Below are positions 32,036 through 60,080 of a DNA stretch of 64,000 nt, one piece after another. Every line of letters starts with the position of its first letter. Positions within the stretch are counted from its first letter, which is position 1. Source of the stretch: an uncultured Verrucomicrobiae bacterium (lineage in GTDB: Bacteria; Verrucomicrobiota; Verrucomicrobiia; Chthoniobacterales; JAFAMB01). Made by a program: the position numbers and the translations under genes. The notes beneath the pieces are model-generated. The model saw nothing but the letters and a program-made list of their open reading frames with translations. It did not search any database and was not told the DNA's origin. The stretch spans positions 96,001-160,000 of the forward strand of contig CAWEXO010000012.1 of NCBI GenBank assembly GCA_963813025.1, read 5' to 3'.

Positions 32036-33748
32036 CAGACGCGCGGACGTACCGCAACATGATTTGCGGCGCCCTAACTAAATAACTTCTTGGGTCGAAT
32101 GGGCGACCCCAGTGCACTGTGAGGGGACCAGCTTCACCCTTGGGTTTGGCCCAAGTATGAAAATCGTCGTGTGCGCGCGAGCCGTCGTGCGCTGCGGGAC
32201 TCTCCATTGTGCGGCTCATCAAACGAGGGCTGTTGCAGTGGTGCTCACGAGGCAAATGGCGGCTGAGCGCCGCTGGTCTTGCAGCATGTCGGCGGCTCTG
32301 TCCGGACATTTAGCACCCGACCTGGCGGCTCATATCGCCTTGCGAATGTGAAATTGATTTTCAGACAGGGACGGCCAGTGCTCTACCACTCGCATGGCTC
32401 GCGAGCGGCAGCCAACTAAACAGGCGGAACGCTGACGGTGGATAGCCCAAAACCTGGATAGCCCAAAATCCTATACGGCGGAAAGCGATCCAGGCGAGCG
32501 CCTACCTGCGGCGCAAAGCAAAGCCAAAAATCACCTTCCAAAGCGGGCCTCAAGCCGCCACATACGCGTCGCAGCCACCCCGTCCTGCTCTCGTTCCCTC
32601 CCACACCAAACAAACACGCCCAGAAGCGATCCTATGAAGGCCTGCATTAGCGTTGAGAAATGTTAGCGGTCGTGGACTGCGTGCGCGCGCCGCCCGGAAA
32701 TAGCGGGCATGAATTAGTGCCTTCACCGAAGCACTTGCCGCCCTTCTCGATCTAGGCTGCGCTTGCCCCGATTTTCCGGACACTAATTTTGGGCTGATTT
32801 CTCTATTGATGGTTACTTGTTTGGTTAGTTGCCGGAACGTTCCGCTGCGGTCAAGAGCCAATCCGGCATAAACAGAGTACTTCCCGCGCTGTGCGCGGGC
32901 CCCTTCTATTTATTCCGTTTGCCTCTTGACCTTCGCTCCACGTTCTGAAGAAGGTTACTGTCACTTTTCCGTTGGAAAAGTGCTTTCCAAAGCAGCTTGT
33001 TGGTATGTTGTCACAAGGTTAGTTTGCCAGGTTTTCGAACTCCGCCGGGGCCAGATAACGAGAGCGCACTGTGCCGCCGCCGACGGTTGTAAAAGCTTTC
33101 CATAAAGCACAAGATTTCGCGCTGAGCGCTTGGATGGGTCGCAAAAGAGCTGCGGTAGACGCACTCGACTCCCAAGCGTACTAAAGAACGCTTCCATCGC
33201 CGCGTTATCGTAACAGCACCCCTTACGACTCATGCTGGCAACCACGCCGTGCGCCTTGAGCACCTGGCGGTAAGCGGCGCTGGCATACTGCACACCGCGA
33301 TCGGAATGATGGATCAGTCCCTCCGGCGGCCGGCGATGCACCAGGCCCATCGCCAAGGCCGCGGCTACCAGCTCGGTACCCAGGTGATGCGCGAAAGCCC
33401 ACCCGATGATTCGCCGGCTGTACAGATCCATGATCACGGCCAGCTACAACCAGCCTTCCTCGGTTGGGATGTAGGTGATAGCGCTCACCCAAATCTGATC
33501 GCGCCGGCTCGCCTTAGGCCGCTGGGCAAGCCGGTGAGGAGCGATCGGTTCATCATGGCAGCTATCGGTTGTCTGAGGCCGGTAGCGCCGCTTCGCTCGG
33601 CCACTCAGCCCGAGCTCGCGCCGAATCCGATCGATCCGTTTCCGGCTGTGCTTGTGCCCTCGATCCCGTAGCTCTGCATGCAGCCGCGGCGTTCCATAGG
33701 TATCACGACTTTGTTGGTGAACTTCACTGATCTGTTCAGCTAGTCACA

Positions 33749-34902
33749 TGTCTCTTAAATAATAGTGACATTTATTTCTCCTCAAGAGCGGCCTGCCAAG
33801 CGCGCTGGATCTTGGCCAGAATCTCTTCTCCTTGAGCCCTCCAAACATAACGCTTCGGAGGGAGATTATGTTGAGCCAGGTATTGCATGATCGCCTCAAC
33901 CAGTTGGCCGACACTGCCAAAGCTGCCGGGCAGGATCGTCTGCTGGCTCAGATCGCGGAAGAAGCGCTCGACCATATTCATCCAGGAGGAACTGGTTGGG
34001 GTAAAGTGCAGTTCGAAACGCGGATGGCGTTCCAACCAACGCCGGACGCTCGGATGTTTGTGAGTGGCGTAATTGTCCAGAATGATGTGGATGTGTTGGC
34101 TCACGGGGATCTCCCGGTCAATGCGCTTGAGGAATTCGAGCCATTGGCGGTGCGTGTGTTTGTGAGCGGTGTGGGCGATTACTTTTCCCTGCAGGTAGTC
34201 GAGCGCGGCAAAGAGGGTGACCGTGCCATTGCGATAGTAATCGTGGGTTTGGGTACGAATATGCCCTTTGCCCAGCGGCAGACCGGGTTGGCTGCGTTGC
34301 AGCGCTTGGATCTGGCTTTTCTCGTCACAGCAAAGCACCACCGCATTCTGGGGCGGATTGAGGTAGAGCCCGATCACGTCCCAAAACTTCGCTTCAAAGT
34401 CCGGATCGGTCGAAAGCTTAAAGACCCGTGTCAGATGCGGCTTGATTTCATTCTCGCTCCAAACCCGCTGCACGGTTGCCTTGGACAGTCCCAACTCCCG
34501 AGCCATTGCTCGACAAGTCCAGCGCGCTTGACCGTGCGGAGGCCGGGTGGCTTGATCGAGGATCTGCCGCAAGACAGCGGCTGCAATGCGGCCCTTACGG
34601 CCCGAGCGCGGCTGATCCTGCAAAGCGGCCAGCCCGCCTTCGCTGAAGCGCCTTCGCCACTTCCTGACTTGGTTATAGTGCATATCGACCTCTCGGCCGA
34701 TGCTCCGATCCCTTTTGCCTGCTGCCGCCAACTGGATCACTCGCGCCCGTTGGGCCAAGCCATGAGGAGTGCTTTGGGCGCGCAGCAATTGCTGCAGTCG
34801 CTGCTCTTCAGCCGAACTCAATTCCACTTTTCGCCGCGCCCGCTTAGCCATGCAGCCAGCGAAGCATTTTTCTCTTAGAATGTCACTATTATTTAAGAGA
34901 CA
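33749..34902 (-). mobile_element. IS630-family insertion sequence
   Basis: Perfect 24-bp terminal IRs TGTCTCTTAAATAATAGTGACATT (33749-33772) and AATGTCACTATTATTTAAGAGACA (34879-34902); inserted at a CTAG of IS3 orfB. Confidence 0.92.
33772..34851 (-). CDS. IS630 transposase (intact, 359 aa)
   Basis: CDEKSQIQAL, THDYYRNGT, ILDNYATHK, FTPTSSSWMNMVERFF. Confidence 0.93.
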   Translation of the reverse strand: MAKRARRKVELSSAEEQRLQQLLRAQSTPHGLAQRARVIQLAAAGKRDRSIGREVDMHYNQVRKWRRRFSEGGLAALQDQPRSGRKGRIAAAVLRQILDQATRPPHGQARWTCRAMARELGLSKATVQRVWSENEIKPHLTRVFKLSTDPDFEAKFWDVIGLYLNPPQNAVVLCCDEKSQIQALQRSQPGLPLGKGHIRTQTHDYYRNGTVTLFAALDYLQGKVIAHTAHKHTHRQWLEFLKRIDREIPVSQHIHIILDNYATHKHPSVRRWLERHPRFELHFTPTSSSWMNMVERFFRDLSQQTILPGSFGSVGQLVEAIMQYLAQHNLPPKRYVWRAQGEEILAKIQRAWQAALEEK

Positions 34903-35254
34903 CTGCTGCACGTCTTCCTTGGCTCGAGCACTGGGCTTACTGCGCCGCTCCAGCCAGTCATAAAAACCACTCCGGCTGACGCAGAAGGCCTCGCAGAGCA
35001 CCTCTGTCGAGTAACCGTTCTTCATTTCTTCGATCCGTTCGTAGCGCTCGAGGGCCCCCCTCAGACAATGCCCAGCGTTTTTTTTAGTATCTCCCGCTGT
35101 TGCGTCAGATCAGAACTGCGGAATTAAATCTAGAGGCGGTAGCTATATAAGCAGGGAAAGAGGGAGAGTAGAAGGAAACACTGATGGCAAGTGGTAGGGT
35201 GGCTAGGGACTGAGCTCGGCGTCAGCGAAGTTGCCAAAGGACATTTGAGGTTCA

Positions 35255-37331: not shown

Positions 37332-38576
37332 TCATGCAGGGTCGGAGGAAAACTTTCCATGACGAAGAACTGCCCGGTGGAACTGCAGAATCGTCTGGCC
37401 GCTGAGGACGATCTCGAACCGGCAATGTGCGTGATAAAGACGCCCGGCGCGTTCTTGCGCCCAGGTCTCTTCATCGATCGACTGATGCAGATAACTGAAC
37501 GCATCGACCCAATCATGGTAGGTCGCGCGGTTCGGCACTGTTCTGCACCAAGCGTAGGTCTGCCGATCGTTAGTCATATCGTTGCTGATCCAGGCTTTCG
37601 TTGCATTAGCCTTACCGAAGTAGAATGTTTCTTCCCCAAGGTACTGGCTCAAGCTCGGGTAGTCATGGGCCGTTAGCAGCGAACCAATTCCGATCAGGAA
37701 ATCGATCGGCATGGCCGTGCGCGTTTGCGTTGGAGGTTGAGCCCTTGGCGCGGACGGCGCTTCCGCAACGACTTGCCGAAGGCTGATGACCTTAATAAGC
37801 ACGGTCGCTCTGCTTGCTTCGGCGACGATCTCTTGGCGCGTTAGTTTCTCGGTCCGCGAAGAGAGCGAAAAATAAGAACCGAAATCTGCAAATACTTGGC
37901 TACTACAAATCGCATGGTTAATTCGCTCTGACATTTGCCCGGTCTGTTTGAGGACATAGAGGGGATTTATGCTGCTTTTCACGACCCCGACGACCTCGCC
38001 GCGGTCGTTAAGAACTGGTCCCCCGGAATTACCAGGGTTAACGGTCGCATCGATTTGCAGGAGTCCGGGTCGAACCGCGTTTATCTGACCGCGACTGGCC
38101 GACACGCCATCACCCAGTATATTGCCCAGGGGATAGCCGAATACGAACACGTCATCCATGATTTGGGCTCCGTCCGAATCGCCTACTGGCAAAACATCGT
38201 AGTTGTCACCTTGAATCTTGAGCAGAGCGAGATCATGAACGGTATCGTCAACAATGACCGCCGCACTGGCGTCATTGGTTTTGCCGGGAACCGATACGTA
38301 GATTTCCCTGGCGTTCTCGACCACGTGGTGGTTCGTAATAACGTATCCGTCCTTGCGAACGATAAAGCCGCTGGCGGTGCCATCGGCCTTAAGATTGGGA
38401 GCGATCGTCGCAAGGAGTATCACCCCAGCTAGTAGCTTTCTGCAGGGCGAATTGGTTGGCCAACCAATCAAGACGGTTCCGAGCTTCAAGCCGGAACCGG
38501 AAGATTTCGTCGCAGATTTTCGTGAGAATCCAAGGTTTATCGGCGAGCGGAGGAAAGCGATCACTGATGCAAGCAT
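37332..38576 (-). CDS. Trypsin-like (S1C) serine protease with C-terminal extension; start uncertain
   Basis: ASGFIV, ITNHHVV, DLALLKI, GYPLG, QIDATVNPGNSGGP. Confidence 0.85.
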   Translation of the reverse strand: MLASVIAFLRSPINLGFSRKSATKSSGSGLKLGTVLIGWPTNSPCRKLLAGVILLATIAPNLKADGTASGFIVRKDGYVITNHHVVENAREIYVSVPGKTNDASAAVIVDDTVHDLALLKIQGDNYDVLPVGDSDGAQIMDDVFVFGYPLGNILGDGVSASRGQINAVRPGLLQIDATVNPGNSGGPVLNDRGEVVGVVKSSINPLYVLKQTGQMSERINHAICSSQVFADFGSYFSLSSRTEKLTRQEIVAEASRATVLIKVISLRQVVAEAPSAPRAQPPTQTRTAMPIDFLIGIGSLLTAHDYPSLSQYLGEETFYFGKANATKAWISNDMTNDRQTYAWCRTVPNRATYHDWVDAFSYLHQSIDEETWAQERAGRLYHAHCRFEIVLSGQTILQFHRAVLRHGKFSSDPA

Positions 38577-38750
38577 TCGTCCTCGTTGGAGAGTTGATGT
38601 GTGTTGAGCGGCCCATTTGAAAACGCAGCTGCATGTCATAAGACGGATTGTATACGAAAAGTTAAATCTTTTCTTATAATTGTATGTTTTTATAAGCACG
38701 GTCGACAATCGGCCTTGACCCCTGAGCTCCAACGAGCGTAATTTCCGAGC

Positions 38751-39461
38751 GTGGCCGCTGAATCCGACACCGCTCAAGACACTCGAGAACTTTTTAATGG
38801 GGACTCAAAAACTCCTTTCCAGCTGGCGGAGATGATCCGGCGCACGATTCTGGAGGAGCAGTTCTGTCCGGGGGACCGATTGACCGAGGCCGAGCTCTCA
38901 GAGCAATTCAAAGTGAGCCGTTCACCAGTCCGGGAAGCACTGCTCGCATTGGAAAAAGAGGGGAGTGTCGTTCTGCTGCCGTACCGAGGCGCAATCGTTA
39001 CAGCGCTCTCAGCTGAGGAGGCTGAGGAAATCGCCGAGCTCAGGCTCGCTGTAATCCCTTTCATAGCCAAAGCGGCTTACCCGCAGCTTTCGCCGGCAGA
39101 TTTTATGCTGGCAGAAAAAGCAGCCAAGGTACTGCGAAAGACGAAAATCCCCAGGGAGTACTATCATGAGGCGGTGACGTTCTGGAATGTGTTCCTGAAG
39201 CGAGCCAATCGTCCAATTGCTGTGGAAGTTTTCCGGCAGCTTCAGAACCGGGGTACCCGATATATACCGCTAATCTTGAGACTGTTCCCCGATCCAGAGT
39301 CCAGGCCAAGGCAACGCGAGGAGTTCGTCAGACTTATCCAGCAGGGCAAAATCACAGAAGCAGTCCGGACATTTCGAAAGCTCTACTTCGAGGTGATGGA
39401 GCGTCTAATCGTTCACCTGAAGGAGCGGCGGCTCTCGGAACACAACATGAAGAGACCATAA
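38751..39461 (+). CDS. GntR (FCD) transcriptional regulator
   Basis: PGDRLTEAELSEQFKVSRSPVREALLALEKEG. Confidence 0.88.
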   Translation: MAAESDTAQDTRELFNGDSKTPFQLAEMIRRTILEEQFCPGDRLTEAELSEQFKVSRSPVREALLALEKEGSVVLLPYRGAIVTALSAEEAEEIAELRLAVIPFIAKAAYPQLSPADFMLAEKAAKVLRKTKIPREYYHEAVTFWNVFLKRANRPIAVEVFRQLQNRGTRYIPLILRLFPDPESRPRQREEFVRLIQQGKITEAVRTFRKLYFEVMERLIVHLKERRLSEHNMKRP

Positions 39462-39883: not shown

Positions 39884-40230
39884 TTAGGTGACCGATACGC
39901 TAATTATTAGGTGCCCGTTGGCGCTTGTGCCGATAGCCAGGACAGGGAGATCGCGTTTTGCAGGACCCTTCGTCACTTTCCCTTCCTGGGTGAATGTTGA
40001 TCCGTGACATTTGCACATGAATGTATGGTCAGCTTCTGCCGCCAGCTTGCATCTGCGATGAGTGCGATAGGATGAAAGGGCGACCAATTTTCCGCCCTTT
40101 CGGACCAGGAAAAATGCTTGATCGCGGAATTTATCGTACAAACCGTCGGCTGCGTAAAGGCCGGCTTGCCCTGCATCAATTACCTGTTCCTTTGCCGGCG
40201 CGTCCAGATGTGATGCGATCGTCGTACGGC
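39884..40230 (-). pseudogene. Rieske [2Fe-2S] protein, truncated, first Cys ligand replaced
   Basis: Box 2 CKCHGS intact; box 1 reads SYRTHRRC instead of CTH..C; no clear start. Confidence 0.7.
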
Positions 40231-40589
40231 CAGAGCGTATTTCCCAGCAAGATCAACAAACTGATCAACAGTTTGTGCCAGGGCTATTCCACACATGAGA
40301 AAAAAGGCCAGACAAAGAAGAGTGTCTTCATCACTTGTGCCGAAGCATTGCCAAAAATTCTCATCTTTCTACTCCCGACCAGCGTATCAGCATGCAACAG
40401 AGCGGGAGCAGGAGCGGTGAGCCGGCTGTCTATAGTCAATGTTGCGATAATCCAGTCTCCGCAAGCTCCGGTATTACGGCGGTTTGCGTGATGGAGAAAC
40501 TCAGCGGCGAGACCCTGACTCAGGCCGTGGGTCGATTTTCGGTAGGCACTACGTTCCAGGTCGCCGGACCGGCTTCTTGAGCAATCTTG

Positions 40590-43424
40590 TTACATGTACA
40601 TGTTAAGACGCGACCCAGAAGGCTGCAGGCGCGCGCCGGTTACCAGCGCATGAAGGCAGTGGCTGACTTGATCGATCCGAATATCTGAACGCGTCAGTGT
40701 ACAGCGCACGCCGCCAATGGCCTTTGGTCCGGCCCGCAGCGCGAAAACGTCTTCCGGAAAAACGATCAGGTTTGTCATAAACCGCATCGCTGCCGACCAT
40801 GCCGCAGCATAGCGTGCGGCTCGTTCGACGTCGCCCACAGCGATCGCAATCTCCCAGGATGCAGCGACGCCCTCGGCGATAAAACCCGTATTGAAACTCG
40901 GCTCATCCGGGCTGAGATCTTCAAGAAACGCACCGCTACTCCCTAGTTGCCGATCAATGGCCCAATCAGTGGCCGCGAAGGCAAGTTCAACCGCCGCCCG
41001 ATCTGCAGTAACCCGGTACAACGCCGCCATGCCCTGCGGCAGCCAGCCGGCCTGTCCCCACCCCGGCAAAGCTGAAAAATGATGTGCGTACCATGCAACC
41101 TGCGCGCCGGCATTCTGGATAGCCCCGAAATTTGCCAAACCGGCCAGCAGAGCTCCGGGCAGAAACTCGTGATCCTCCGGCAGTTCAAGCCGCTTAGGCG
41201 TATACCCGATTCGTCCTTCCGGCCGCAGCAGGCCGCGCAGACGGGCAGCCAGAGCGCGTGAAGCAGCCCGCTGACTGAGCGCCTTATAGCGAGCGACCGC
41301 GCCAAGGAGAACCGCGTCCGCAAGCGTCCCGCCGACGACGCCGGGAAGAACGATGGTACCCTCCCGCACATGGTCCAGACAATAACCGAAGCCGGCGCCA
41401 GCCCCCTCCCGCCAACTCCGTTCCCCAAGAAATAACCCTGCGAGGTCCAGCGCCATCAATCCGTGAATGGCGCGTCCGGCAGTCCCGTAGATCTGCACCT
41501 CGCCGCTGGCCGGTTGTAGCATGTAACGCGGCAGGCGGTCAGCCCCGAGCGATCCGACGATGTAAGTGCCCAGCAAACGGATCAAAGAGGCGGAATCCAG
41601 GGTATCGGCATCACGAACCGCAGAGCCGAACCGCAAAGGGTGGGTATACCGGCCATCATCAACCCATTCGGCGCATTGCAAGGTTCGCCATTCGACCTGG
41701 CGACTTTCGGCTGCAGCCTCGGCACCCGCCAAGCGCACGCAGGTCCGGACGAATTCCGCTCGCGTGAGGTTGTTGTAAACCAGCACCGATGGCAGGAGAA
41801 TCGTGGTTTTGCCGGAATAGTGGATTTCAAGCGCATCAAGCCCGCGCCGAAGCTTGAATGCGACAGTTTGGACGGCCGCCCTGCCGAGCAGTTCCGGATC
41901 GTGCAGGACGGAAACGACTATCGTTCCGCGCGTCAACCCTGAACCGCCCCGCGGGTCAGCGGCCGCCTGTAGCACCGCAGCACGCAGCGCGTCGTCGAAC
42001 TCGGTTCCCAGTGCTAATCCGTATCCGATCAGGCCGTAGTCCGGGTGATAGACGCGGACCGCGACCGCTTCGATACGGCCAATATCCTCCGGCGCACTGG
42101 CCAATGGAAAAGCATCGACTGAGGCCGGAGCACTTGCGCTTTCTTTTTCCTTCGATTGTTCCTCTTTACCCTGCAGTTCGTCGAATAACTGCCGAGCACG
42201 GGCTGTGATCCGGCGACCACACTCTGCGGTCCGCCACCAGCCTGCAGCGCTCTCCGGCGAACCGTACTGCAGCCACGTTTGGCCCGGTTCGACGTATTTG
42301 AAGACCTCGTGGCGGAATAGATCGTGGGGCTCGCCAGGCTCAATGCCTGCATTGGTCACGCGCGCCTGGCGATATTGTTCGACCTCGCTGATGAAAGCCT
42401 GCGTGTTGGGCAGCGCGCCGCCCATCTTACTTGGAAATGCCCGGCTTCGCACCACAATACCGTAACGCTCAAAATCAAGATCTTTGGGCTTAATCAGTTC
42501 GAGCGCGGAAAAAAAAGTGACCGCAATTTTGAGTTCTGGAAGGGCTTGGGGTGTAATGCGCCCATGCGCATCCCGTAGTGTCTCAATTGTTGCCGCAATC
42601 ACGTCCGCACACGGCGCCGCATCGTCCGGATTGAAATGCCAATATCCGCTACGAGCAATTCGGTTATCGTTAGCGCGCTCACGAAAGCTGACAAAGACGC
42701 CTCCCGGGGATGCATAGTTCCGATCCATTTGCAGGGGCGGCCAGGGCGCCAGACCGGTGGCAAGCCACGTGGCCGCTGAAAACCGGGCCAGTGCCGCCGG
42801 GTGCAAACCTTCGGGAGCTCTCACTTTGCCGGTAAGCGGGGCCGGCCGCCGTTCAGGCTTAGCCAGCGTGCGGGCCATACCAAGATCGGACCAGACATCC
42901 AGGATCGCTTCGGCCCGGTAGCCAGCCGAATTTGCCCAATCGAGGCCACCTCGATACGGAAACTGCACCAGGGCGATCGCGCCTTCGACTTCGCCTCCCT
43001 CATTCTCGATAGCCCTGATGGCTTCTGCGATGGAATTGCCGGAGCTGACCGAGTCATCGATAATCACAACCGGGGCAGATTTGTCGAACGGCCCTTCCAC
43101 CTGGCGGCAGGAAACATATTTTTTCCGGCTCTCGCGGATGCAAAGGCCAGTGTAGCGCCCTTCTCCGAGCAGGACGCACGCGGAGAGCAGGGGTATGCCG
43201 GTGTAACCGATGCTTGCTAACTGGGAGGCCCTGAATCCGCGCAGCCGCTCCAGTATGCAGACCGCAGCAAGACGCAATCCCCGCGCTGTCAGGGTTGCGT
43301 TCCAGCTATAAAATGCCCATGGTGCAGGTGTCCGATCCTGATGCCGAATTGGCTGCCCGGCTGAAGCATAAAGAATGCCATGCCGGCTCAAACAGGTGGC
43401 CAGCTCTTCCCGGTTACGGCTCAC
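40590..43424 (-). CDS. Multidomain protein: PyrE-like phosphoribosyltransferase + two AMMECR1-like domains + C-terminal alpha/alpha-barrel-like domain
   Basis: PRPP loop VVIIDDSVSSGNSI; AMMECR1-like GGVFVSF...ELKIAVTFFS...YGIVV...GGALPN and AAADPR...VVSVL...LRRGLDAL...ILLPSV...LAG; helical C-terminus ending IRIDQVSHCL. Confidence 0.8.
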   Translation of the reverse strand: MSRNREELATCLSRHGILYASAGQPIRHQDRTPAPWAFYSWNATLTARGLRLAAVCILERLRGFRASQLASIGYTGIPLLSACVLLGEGRYTGLCIRESRKKYVSCRQVEGPFDKSAPVVIIDDSVSSGNSIAEAIRAIENEGGEVEGAIALVQFPYRGGLDWANSAGYRAEAILDVWSDLGMARTLAKPERRPAPLTGKVRAPEGLHPAALARFSAATWLATGLAPWPPLQMDRNYASPGGVFVSFRERANDNRIARSGYWHFNPDDAAPCADVIAATIETLRDAHGRITPQALPELKIAVTFFSALELIKPKDLDFERYGIVVRSRAFPSKMGGALPNTQAFISEVEQYRQARVTNAGIEPGEPHDLFRHEVFKYVEPGQTWLQYGSPESAAGWWRTAECGRRITARARQLFDELQGKEEQSKEKESASAPASVDAFPLASAPEDIGRIEAVAVRVYHPDYGLIGYGLALGTEFDDALRAAVLQAAADPRGGSGLTRGTIVVSVLHDPELLGRAAVQTVAFKLRRGLDALEIHYSGKTTILLPSVLVYNNLTRAEFVRTCVRLAGAEAAAESRQVEWRTLQCAEWVDDGRYTHPLRFGSAVRDADTLDSASLIRLLGTYIVGSLGADRLPRYMLQPASGEVQIYGTAGRAIHGLMALDLAGLFLGERSWREGAGAGFGYCLDHVREGTIVLPGVVGGTLADAVLLGAVARYKALSQRAASRALAARLRGLLRPEGRIGYTPKRLELPEDHEFLPGALLAGLANFGAIQNAGAQVAWYAHHFSALPGWGQAGWLPQGMAALYRVTADRAAVELAFAATDWAIDRQLGSSGAFLEDLSPDEPSFNTGFIAEGVAASWEIAIAVGDVERAARYAAAWSAAMRFMTNLIVFPEDVFALRAGPKAIGGVRCTLTRSDIRIDQVSHCLHALVTGARLQPSGSRLNMYM

Positions 43425-43442
43425 GACCGAATGACCGCTCTA

Positions 43443-43844
43443 TTATCCTTGGGCGCCCGTCGAAGCCCGGAGAGCAGCGATGCTCGCCTCGATAGAACTG
43501 AGCCGTTCGAGGATCGCGCTGATATACTGCGTCAGCTCGCCGAATTCGGCTGGAGGAAGTTCATTCGGGGCACCGGGACCTGGACGATGGAGGATGAAAT
43601 CTCGAATCGGCGGGAGTTCGTGAGGATTAGGCCTTGGCGATCGCGGATTAAATTTTATGATCAGCAGCTCGGATTCGAGCGCGTGTACGCGGTCGCGCAA
43701 ACGGAATAATTCGGTGACCGCCTCGCGGTCAAAGGCATAAACCGGGCCTGCAGGTAATTCCTCGACTCCCGGACGCGGAGGATGCGCCCGTCCGCCGCCG
43801 CCTTCGACGGGGCCGGCCGGCAATTCAACAATATGTTCTGGCAT
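43443..43844 (-). CDS. Small Pro-rich protein with four ELP motifs (candidate substrate/precursor)
   Basis: VELPAGP, EELPAGP, PHELPP, PNELPP plus two heptad helices; 18 bp upstream of the large gene, same strand; ATG at 43844 preceded by GAAAG. Confidence 0.7.
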   Translation of the reverse strand: MPEHIVELPAGPVEGGGGRAHPPRPGVEELPAGPVYAFDREAVTELFRLRDRVHALESELLIIKFNPRSPRPNPHELPPIRDFILHRPGPGAPNELPPAEFGELTQYISAILERLSSIEASIAALRASTGAQG

Positions 43845-44052
43845 GGGTTGGCTTTCGTTCTGCGATTTGAACAGAAGGGGACAGAAAACTAACAGTAATA
43901 GCAAATGCCAAAGCGACCCCGGATGCAACACGAAAAAGCAACGACTACCCGAAAGGAGTAAATTTGGTTAGTTCTATCAATGGCCGGTTTCTCAGACCCA
44001 AGTCGTTTGTGGCAGCAGACGTTGAAAGATCTAGGAAGTGGACGACGGAAAA

Positions 44053-47798: not shown

Positions 47799-48029
47799 TC
47801 AATTAATGTTGCCGTGATCATGACTCTGATCGTGGTCGTGACTCTGATCGTGGTCGTGACTCTGATCGCGGTCTTCATCATGAGTCTGGTGATGGTGCTT
47901 CTGATGATGGTGATGATGATACGATTGATGATGTTGGTCCTGGTGCTCGTCATCGTCGCGAGCTTGCGCCAAAGGACAAAAAACAACAGCGATCCCCAGC
48001 GTGACAAAAGCCATAAGTGCGTTTTTCAT
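47799..48029 (-). CDS. Small secreted His/Asp-rich peptide
   Basis: Signal peptide MKNALMAFVTLGIAVVFCPLAQA; poly-His and DQSHDH x3 encoded by an 18-bp tandem repeat at ~47815-47870. Confidence 0.6.
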   Translation of the reverse strand: MKNALMAFVTLGIAVVFCPLAQARDDDEHQDQHHQSYHHHHHQKHHHQTHDEDRDQSHDHDQSHDHDQSHDHGNIN

Positions 48030-48590: not shown

Positions 48591-49010
48591 TCAGCGGATA
48601 TAGTCCGGAGCCTTCCTGAGTAACTTGGCGAGCAGCTTACGTCGTTGGAGGAACGGTTGAGCGCGCAAGTCGGTTCCCTCGAGCCTGAGCAGATCAAAGG
48701 CGTAGTAGACCAGCGGGGTTCGCTTCCCGCTGCCGTATGATTGCAGGAGTCGGAATGACGTTTTCCCGTCAGAGTCAAGCGCAGTGATTTCGCCGTCGAT
48801 AACCACGTTTCTTACAGTTAGCAGTTTCCGGGCGTCGATGAGCTGGGGGTAATCGTTGCCGAAATTGATTTGGTTGCGTGAGATCAGCCGAACCTCTTTA
48901 CCAGCTTTGACAGCGAGCGCGCGGTAGCCATCGAATTTCAATTCATAGAGCCAGTCGCCGGACGGGAGATCCCGGACGGGGAGCGCCTTCATTGGCTCAA
49001 TGAATGAAAA
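48591..49010 (-). pseudogene. LigD-type ATP-dependent DNA ligase, adenylation-domain fragment
   Basis: FIEPMKA, WLYELKFDGYRA, VIDGEI, YYAFDLL; truncated. Confidence 0.8.
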
Positions 49011-49271
49011 GTTGCTGGCTGCGCCTGCTTCATGGAGAGGGAGGCGGGTAGGCCAAAAACTGGGCTCGGCTCTTGAGATAGGGACGGCCGCGTGGCTGGG
49101 CGCAGCAGCGTTTGCAGCGCCGGTTGAGGCCATCGGGAAAATGGCGGGAACGACATTATGCTGTTAGAAGCTGGCGTCGGTGGCAGCTGGTACACTTTTT
49201 CGTTTTTGGAATCTTCGCGCTTTTGGCTCGCGCACGAACTTCGGCACCGTTGTGCAACTGGGTGTTCATTG

Positions 49272-59519: not shown

Positions 59520-60020
59520 CTACTTCAAGCCCTCGCCCTCGCAGACTGCTGGGGATTCGCGCAAACTCCGTGCGCAGATCAGACCATCAAAATTTGCCGG
59601 AACAAAGGAAAGCTCCGGCGGGATCGTGATTCCAGCCGCAGCCAGAAGTTCTCGCTTGAACGCCTGAGTTGCGGGATGATCGACCTCGAAGACTCGCGGA
59701 GCAGATTTAGACGATGAATTCCGATAGGCAAAAGTATCCAATCCGGCCCCGAGGATGACGTATTGGCGAACTCTACTTTGAATACTTGTGGCTAAGACGT
59801 CCTCGGCATAGCGGCTTCGAACTGCAAAGAAGGCGCGCCTCCGTCGCGCCGCGGATTTTTGGGCTTCTTCCGGATCGGTCGCCAAGGCCGCCCTCGCTTC
59901 CACCCCGATGATCCCAAGGGCAAGAGGATCATCAAAGACTCTCAGATAGTCATAGATCTGGTGGGCGGCCCGATGTAGCGCGACCCGCTCGGCCGTCTTG
60001 CTTGGCGTGGTCCTGTGCAT
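59520..60020 (-). pseudogene. LCM-type SAM-dependent methyltransferase, C-terminally truncated
   Basis: SKTAERVALHRAAH, VRSRYAED, QYVILGAGLDTFAYR, VFEVDHPATQ. Confidence 0.75.
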
Positions 60021-60080
60021 TCGAATGCTGTTGTTTGGGACTAACCCCAACAAAGGCTGATTTGGACAACCCCGAAAATC

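Follow-up and report, generated by a model that had tools for sequence, protein, structure and literature searches.

The described systems that come closest to the locus studied here are orotate phosphoribosyltransferase (OPRT, PyrE; structures 5hki and 5hkl from Mycobacterium tuberculosis and 2wns from human), the AMMECR1 proteins (PF01871; AmmeMemoRadiSam protein A, TIGR04335; structures 1vaj, 1zq7 and 1wsc), the six-hairpin (alpha/alpha)6 enzymes (glycoside hydrolase families GH76 and GH88/GH105, the latter unsaturated glucuronyl hydrolases, AGE epimerases and squalene-hopene cyclase), and the precursor-maturase pairs of ribosomally synthesized and post-translationally modified peptides (RiPPs), both NHLP/double-glycine and multi-core, cyanobactin-type. 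In this study, we analysed a two-gene unit in a 64,000-nt stretch of DNA (hereafter the window) from an uncultured Verrucomicrobiae bacterium (contig CAWEXO010000012.1, positions 96,001 to 160,000). Gene 1 encodes a 133-aa protein with repeated Glu-Leu-Pro (ELP) motifs, and gene 2 a 944-aa protein that fuses an OPRT-like type I phosphoribosyltransferase (PRTase) domain, two AMMECR1-like domains and an (alpha/alpha)6 toroid. The pair probably represents a hitherto undescribed route to the chemical modification of peptides or proteins. The unit is laid out as follows.

40514..43970, strand not assigned: duplicated, apparently portable two-gene cassette, with a second copy on contig C5
43443..43844, minus strand: gene 1, 133 aa from ATG, Glu/Pro-rich putative substrate, ending in a double stop (TAA TAG)
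43425..43442, minus strand: spacer, the 18 nt of sequence between gene 1 and gene 2
40590..43424, minus strand: gene 2, 944 aa from a GTG start, four-domain enzyme

A preliminary description of this DNA had reported two intact, co-oriented genes 18 nt apart, and both the open reading frames (ORFs) and the spacer sequence bear this out. A longer frame of 162 aa is possible for gene 1, from a GTG at 43931. The orthologues begin at a Met equivalent to the 133-aa start, and the longer frame is probably not coding, because the paralogous copy on contig C5 carries an indel in the extension and the ratio of nonsynonymous (pN) to synonymous (pS) differences is about 0.54 there, against 0.14 for the 133-aa frame. 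A promoter and terminator scan of the unit gave no convincing operon signals.

The domains that had been called in the 944-aa protein (a PRTase, two AMMECR1 domains and a helical domain) were upheld by profile and structure matches. The AlphaFold2 model, built from 109 homologues, has a mean predicted local distance difference test (pLDDT) of 93.3 and a predicted template-modelling (TM) score of 0.92. The domains are as follows.

42870..43424, minus strand: OPRTase-like type I PRTase domain, residues 1-185, from structure and profile matches
43038..43070, minus strand: phosphoribosyl pyrophosphate (PRPP)-binding loop VVIIDDSVSSG, residues 119-129
42240..42842, minus strand: AMMECR1-like domain a, about residues 195-395, with the best Pfam stretch at 235-365
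41625..42077, minus strand: AMMECR1-like domain b, about residues 450-600, with the TIGR04335 match at residues 477-583
40608..41612, minus strand: (alpha/alpha)6 toroid domain, residues 605-939, VIA Z 21-24

The first domain shares the fold of OPRT. Residues 1-183 match 5hki with a Foldseek TM score of 0.91 (E 2.5e-10), the domain aligns with 5hkl over 168 of 168 residues (VIA Z 24.8, root-mean-square deviation 1.5 Å), and the family profile matches human OPRT at E 2.7e-14. In the profile alignment the PRPP loop (DD..SSG) falls on that of OPRT; across 109 family sequences D123 and G129 of this loop are invariant, and D124, S125, S127 and S128 are at least 90% conserved. R97, K101 and R107, which align with the flexible loop of OPRT, are likewise invariant. 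Because the residues of both loops are conserved and aligned with the catalytic elements of OPRT, the PRTase domain looks competent. These likenesses, together with the fact that some sources name family members 'orotate phosphoribosyltransferase', could suggest that the large protein is a PyrE variant with orotate phosphoribosyltransferase activity and that the small ORF beside it is incidental, an explanation that we consider hardly credible. The pyrE model TIGR00336 matches residues 45-155 (E 2.9e-12) with 46.7 bits against a cut-off of 106.8, and the remaining PRTase models of NCBIfam are likewise far from their cut-offs. Unlike OPRT, the PRTase domain is invariably joined in one protein with two AMMECR1 domains and a toroid, some 760 further conserved residues, and the family is paired with a Glu/Pro repeat protein, clearly so at 40 of 44 loci; in the window this partner is conserved and under purifying selection. 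In addition, the best pyrE-type match of the genome lies elsewhere, on contig C4 (C4:108252-108635; 134.4 bits to TIGR01367, E 7.8e-39), although it contains one in-frame TGA, covers profile positions 2-131 only, and may reflect either a disrupted gene or a misassembly.

In the AMMECR1 part of the protein, the Pfam AMMECR1 model scores 40.3 bits over two stretches, above its gathering cut-off of 25, beside a weak Pfam match to PRTases, and both Foldseek and the family profile match the AMMECR1 structures 1zq7, 1vaj and 1wsc, the profile at E ~5e-11. Only the family profile detects these regions in sequence, since single-domain phmmer searches of both against PDB sequences gave nothing meaningful. 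Copy b keeps the DPRF-, VSVL..PE- and LLP-type motifs of AMMECR1 proteins. In contrast to the AmmeMemoRadiSam proteins, however, the domain is duplicated here, the TIGR04335 (AmmeMemoSam_A) score is 33 bits against a cut-off of 99, and the Cys of RGCIG, which we take to be the name of the canonical AMMECR1 Cys motif, is replaced. In copy b, the GCIG Cys of PH0010 (the GCIGF segment of 1vaj) aligns to a non-Cys residue in G-l-v-G-y (G-L-I-G-Y in the window); at the corresponding place in copy a, located by eye, the window has GYWHF and the family consensus GFWHF. Conservation in the enzyme is strongest in copy a, where many Arg and Lys residues are invariant, the invariant residues including R248, R255, R258, K299, N340, Q350, N358, R371 and K376; copy b has just four invariant positions among the 109 sequences. 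Memo and radical S-adenosylmethionine (SAM) partners had been described as missing, and we found no Memo homologue in the genome (80% complete) and no radical-SAM gene among the flanking ORFs scanned in the window. Memo-AMMECR1 systems were reportedly treated by Burroughs and co-workers in 2019.

Residues 605-939 share the fold of the six-hairpin (alpha/alpha)6 enzymes and have no sequence-family match in Pfam or NCBIfam. GH76, GH88/105, AGE epimerases and squalene cyclases tie at Z 21-24, with 270-310 residues aligned, and because so many unrelated families tie, no specific activity can be read off the toroid. Its invariant residues include E851, R907, R916, D918 and H922.

The preliminary description did not recognise this architecture. 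It is indeed unnamed, the source names being 'hypothetical' or 'orotate phosphoribosyltransferase/AMMECR1 domain-containing', but it is not unique: 485 of 1.84 billion 50%-cluster representatives reach E<=1e-30, and at the 90%-cluster level there are 299 homologues of full-length type, nearly all of 920-990 aa. A protein Atlas search with the enzyme returned only its own unnamed clusters. The 44 genome loci that we compared come mainly from soil bacteria and represent Pseudomonadota, Acidobacteriota, Verrucomicrobiota, Chloroflexota, Actinomycetota and Myxococcota; cultured carriers include Collimonas arenae, Paraburkholderia humisilvae, Dyella subtropica, Cellulomonas alba and Hamadaea tsunoensis. 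One family member of 1370 aa (P0130) has a C-terminal APH-family kinase domain (E 1.1e-18), and two (P0118 and the enzyme of locus L019; L019:5377-6000) have in common some 185 additional N-terminal residues that no Pfam model matches. Fused forms above 1653 aa were not found, which is weak evidence. A literature search that covered mostly titles, and one passage of PMC7159879, gave nothing on the enzyme architecture or on AMMECR1 biochemistry; among the matches listed, the AMMECR1 literature since 2019 was all human or animal genetics.

The small protein has no family match in the Pfam, NCBIfam or leader-model scans, and the protein Atlas gave chance-level scores only (0.82 or lower). The four ELP motifs noted in it earlier are there, at residues 7, 29, 76 and 95, and four such motifs arose in only 5 of 200,000 composition-preserving shuffles of the protein. 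Its features are as follows.

43818..43826, minus strand: ELP motif 1, residues 7-9, E7 and P9 invariant in 15 orthologues
43752..43760, minus strand: ELP motif 2, residues 29-31, E29 invariant and P31 at least 90% conserved in the same 15 orthologues
43650..43736, minus strand: helix 1 with the ELFRLRDRVHALE core, residues 37-65, an AlphaFold block of pLDDT ~84-85, E45, R52 and E57 invariant
43611..43619, minus strand: ELP motif 3, residues 76-78, E-[LIVF]-P in most, not all, orthologues
43554..43562, minus strand: ELP motif 4 (NELP), residues 95-97, E95 and L96 invariant in the 15 orthologues
43449..43544, minus strand: helix 2 from AlphaFold, residues 101-132, E119 invariant

The Glu of motifs 1, 2 and 4 is thus invariant across the 15 orthologues of the window's class, in which R24 is the remaining invariant residue. 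The structure model of the partner (pLDDT 62.6) shows two helices and places the ELP motifs on low-confidence segments, so that the ELP-bearing segments are probably disordered. A profile search with gene 1 returned 135 homologues, every one named hypothetical; 21 of these 135 window-class partners lie on contigs whose lengths coincide with those of contigs with enzyme matches, which is circumstantial. In comparison with the paralogous copy, pN is 0.0152 and pS 0.1108 for gene 1 (pN/pS 0.14), and the values for gene 2 are 0.0060 and 0.0320 (pN/pS 0.19). Both genes are under purifying selection.

The preliminary description made linkage of the large protein to ELP-type repeat ORFs its own test, and the linkage proved strong across six phyla. 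We used a fixed motif, E-[LIVFMTRHQ]-[AG]{0,2}-P, at three or more copies per 150 aa in the co-oriented 1.2-kb flank, with windows from the same loci as controls: 33 of 44 loci were positive, compared with 11 of 462 control windows. When four motifs were required, the counts were 29/44 and 5/462, and one of the five control positives is itself a second precursor gene, in L019. Inspection by eye found a co-oriented ORF of short Glu/Pro repeats clearly at the 40 loci mentioned above, directly upstream of the enzyme gene at 31 and directly downstream at nine. Of the others, L043 is ambiguous, since its enzyme gene is truncated and its KEFVE repeats lack Pro, L027 has a convergent 63-aa peptide in place of the repeat ORF, and no partner was seen at L033 and L038, whose contigs end within or just past the enzyme gene. 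The fixed motif missed these four as well as L001 and L022 (partners apparently frameshifted), L009 (partner cut by the contig end), and L019, L021, L025 and L036 (variants outside the pattern or the window searched). In an all-against-all clustering of the flanking ORFs of the 44 loci, the small repeat proteins were the sole conserved neighbour. In one family member (P0186) a window-class partner, 43% identical to that of L039 (E 3e-6), is fused in frame before the enzyme. The repeats differ by lineage.

ELP with two helices, the class of the window: Proteobacteria, Verrucomicrobia, several Acidobacteria and one actinomycete
ERPERPE or IVERPE repeats: Thermoanaerobaculia, downstream of the enzyme
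PEIPET and ETPETFE repeats: Acidobacteriaceae and Terriglobia
EVAPEV, VEFAGP, PEVGPEIG, SEVPDH, PELPEFPERPE, ELPQGPG and PIEPG repeats: Actinomycetota
DIEPP repeat: Chloroflexota

The only constant of the partners across lineages is an acidic residue followed by Pro within 0-2 residues. The proteins range from 130 to 400 aa and from 4 to ~50 motif copies, and the number differs even in close relatives (25 in the best upstream frame of L010, 38 in that of L020). In three actinomycetotal loci (L031, L032 and L034) the upstream partners with VE[FI]AGP repeats have long His-rich tails (HH..GH..H runs), and the composition of these tails suggests metal binding in that lineage.

A hypervariable gene of short motifs that adjoins a conserved enzyme is also the arrangement of RiPP precursor-maturase pairs, and at some loci the resemblance goes further, in that L027, L019, L010 and L020 carry radical-SAM, LanB-like or 2-oxoglutarate (2OG) oxygenase genes together with leader-like N-termini. 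L027 encodes a full-length TIGR03975 RiPP maturation radical SAM C-methyltransferase (L027:3918-6026, minus strand; 495.6 bits, above the cut-off), divergent from the enzyme gene. The convergent 63-aa peptide of the same locus (L027:8916-9104, minus strand) ends in ...ENELDNVSGG-AVPTKAPRPELGPPA and scores 16.5 bits against the double-glycine signal model (cut-off 15.7); with its one PELGPP core, it appears to be a single-core version of the partner. In L010 and L020, a short-chain dehydrogenase/reductase (SDR), a PEIPET-repeat protein, the enzyme, a protein with a LanB N-terminal domain (E 8.5e-32 in L010, 6.4e-30 in L020) and a 2OG oxygenase occur together. L019 combines a B12 radical-SAM gene, two repeat proteins, the enzyme, a 2OG oxygenase and an SDR; its repeat proteins match the NHLP-leader model at 20 bits (cut-off 50.9, E ~3e-4) and have SEGG just before the repeats. 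L025, L029 and L036 carry 2OG-Fe(II) oxygenases, which brings the loci with 2OG oxygenases to six in total. Known RiPP tailoring enzymes were found neither in the window nor at most loci and, in contrast to described RiPP systems, the core pair includes no enzyme by which a described RiPP class is defined. Thus, of the precursor-and-maturase layout proposed in the preliminary description, a relationship of the substrate and maturase type is supported by the strong linkage and by the RiPP enzymes and leader-type peptides at some loci. 'RiPP' may, however, be too narrow a label, because most loci lack a leader, a protease or an exporter and the partners reach 400 aa; judged from these gene contents, modification of proteins is as possible as that of peptides.

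These contexts also bear on the explanation that the enzyme acts in the synthesis or breakdown of a small molecule (a nucleotide or sugar-phosphate compound, for example) and that the acidic repeat protein is no substrate but binds the enzyme as a scaffold, chaperone, regulator or polyanionic mimic. Such a role would suit the closeness of the PRTase domain to OPRT, the orotate-binding region included, the resemblance of the toroid to carbohydrate-active enzymes, the two conserved helices of window-class partners, which could dock, and the lack of export and protease genes at most loci. A regulator would not, however, be expected to vary from 4 to ~50 motifs and to turn over wholly while keeping acidic-x-Pro, nor would it account for the RiPP enzymes and the double-glycine leader peptide with a single PELGPP core that adjoin the enzyme at some loci. 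We therefore consider this explanation unlikely, if a serious contender.

From these comparisons we lean towards an enzyme-substrate module with a PRPP-using enzyme. An enzyme that acts on the motif best explains the pairing across phyla, a partner turnover that spares acidic-x-Pro and the variable copy number, and the embedding among RiPP tailoring genes at some loci fits this picture. We infer that the small protein is the substrate, PRPP the co-substrate and a residue of the motif the target, with domain roles as follows. The small protein would display acidic-x-Pro motifs, here the four ELP, on disordered segments between its two helices, and the 944-aa protein would be its dedicated modifying enzyme. 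The strongly basic and highly conserved AMMECR1 domain a would bind the acidic-Pro motif, domain b would be structural, the OPRTase-type domain would transfer 5-phosphoribose from PRPP to the motif, with the Glu carboxylate as the likeliest acceptor, and the glycosidase-like toroid would then process the sugar or adduct. The preliminary description had raised PRPP-dependent (phospho)ribosylation, or a related modification, of the repeated Glu as a possibility. We single out phosphoribosylation of Glu within acidic-x-Pro motifs of a dedicated substrate, with further processing possible, because the PRTase is the only recognisable catalytic apparatus and a carboxylate and Pro are the only universal features of the partners; this specific chemistry is a tentative suggestion that may well prove wrong. 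PARP-type enzymes ADP-ribosylate Glu and Asp residues of proteins, leaving a ribosyl ester on the acidic side chain, with NAD+ as the donor. The product here would be alike if the proposed chemistry is right, although the donor would be PRPP and the fold is unrelated.

Several points weigh against the enzyme-substrate module or its chemistry. The leader-type matches quoted above fall below their cut-off (NHLP) or barely reach it (double-glycine), and the module of the window has no leader, protease or exporter recognisable in the Pfam, NCBIfam and flanking-ORF scans. The count by eye used a lax idea of 'repeat', and the fixed motif misses 11 of the 44 loci. The fusion in P0186 is known from one metagenomic gene call and may be artefactual. 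Both the modification of the partner and its binding to the enzyme are things that we infer, and we know of no type I PRTase with a carboxylate acceptor. Pro instead of Glu could be the target. Because both AMMECR1 copies lack the RGCIG Cys and AMMECR1 chemistry is not known, catalytic roles for them are guesses. A complex prediction with enzyme residues 1-937 and partner residues 1-63 (with alignments, without controls) scored 0.00, which speaks neither way.

The two genes appear to form an accessory, horizontally moving cassette. A second copy in the same genome (contig C5, L051:9452-12906) matches it over 3457 nt at 97.8% identity; its flanks are unrelated to those in the window, and it also sits in a stretch with few long ORFs. 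Among 60 relatives searched, one has the enzyme (same family, 94% identity), and it is absent from the same-genus genome (79% complete). The identity of the window's enzyme to proteobacterial members is 63-66%, above that to most acidobacterial ones. Two other runs contain DNA contigs of relatives at 95-96% identity, and in these the similarity to the window is lost at 43970 and at 40545 or 40481. This pattern fits a portable two-gene unit; the borders have no terminal direct or inverted repeats. A cassette that is duplicated, lies in a variable island with insertion sequences (IS) and occurs in one of 60 relatives, with a hypervariable partner, could also be a conflict system (defence or toxin-antitoxin), in which the PRTase protein would be an effector that depletes nucleotides, with the acidic protein as antidote or sensor; PRTase effectors do exist in retron type III-A systems, for which PADLOC has a model. 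We think this improbable. PADLOC gave nothing significant, its best result being a match of the enzyme to PRTase_III-A at E 0.055 (10.8 bits) that covers the PRPP loop only, and the partner was unmatched; moreover, no other defence genes are conserved nearby, and the recurring neighbours are peptide-tailoring enzymes.

As to expression, two metatranscriptome libraries (two studies) contain contigs of a 95-97% relative that match gene 1 and the 5' part of gene 2, and one of these contigs spans the gene 1/gene 2 junction. This is weak evidence that the pair is transcribed, because DNA carry-over is possible; the parts of the cassette without such cover give no evidence of silence.

The surroundings had been called a decayed island. 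Few long ORFs between ~28 and 61 kb and several gene fragments agree with this, but a GntR regulator and a trypsin-like protease look intact. The fragments and the IS element are as follows.

32961-33437: truncated rve integrase fragment
33772-35025: IS630-type DDE_3 transposase, adjoining the truncated rve fragment
39884-40141: Rieske fragment
48591-49133: ATP-dependent (DNA) ligase fragment
59520-60053: LCM methyltransferase fragment

The trypsin-like protease (minus strand) and the GntR/FCD regulator (plus strand) at 37332-39461 are divergent, and their predicted starts overlap by about 27 nt. A 76-aa ORF at 47799-48029 (minus strand) starts with what resembles a signal peptide and is otherwise extremely rich in His and Asp, with three DQSHDH repeats, and its product is possibly a secreted metal-binding peptide.

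In summary, if the partner is the substrate, the pair represents a widespread and unnamed system of peptide or protein modification whose enzyme has an architecture without a characterised member. Because cultured carriers exist, the idea is directly testable, and the two genes offer a handle on two questions, the role of the AMMECR1 domain and the use of PRPP as a donor for protein modification. The function of the AMMECR1 domain has been unsolved since the human disease gene got its name. Should Glu phosphoribosylation prove true, AMMECR1 domains would read or process acidic-x-Pro motifs, and the AMMECR1 fold, which the AmmeMemoRadiSam proteins and human AMMECR1 share, would thereby gain its first biochemical role.

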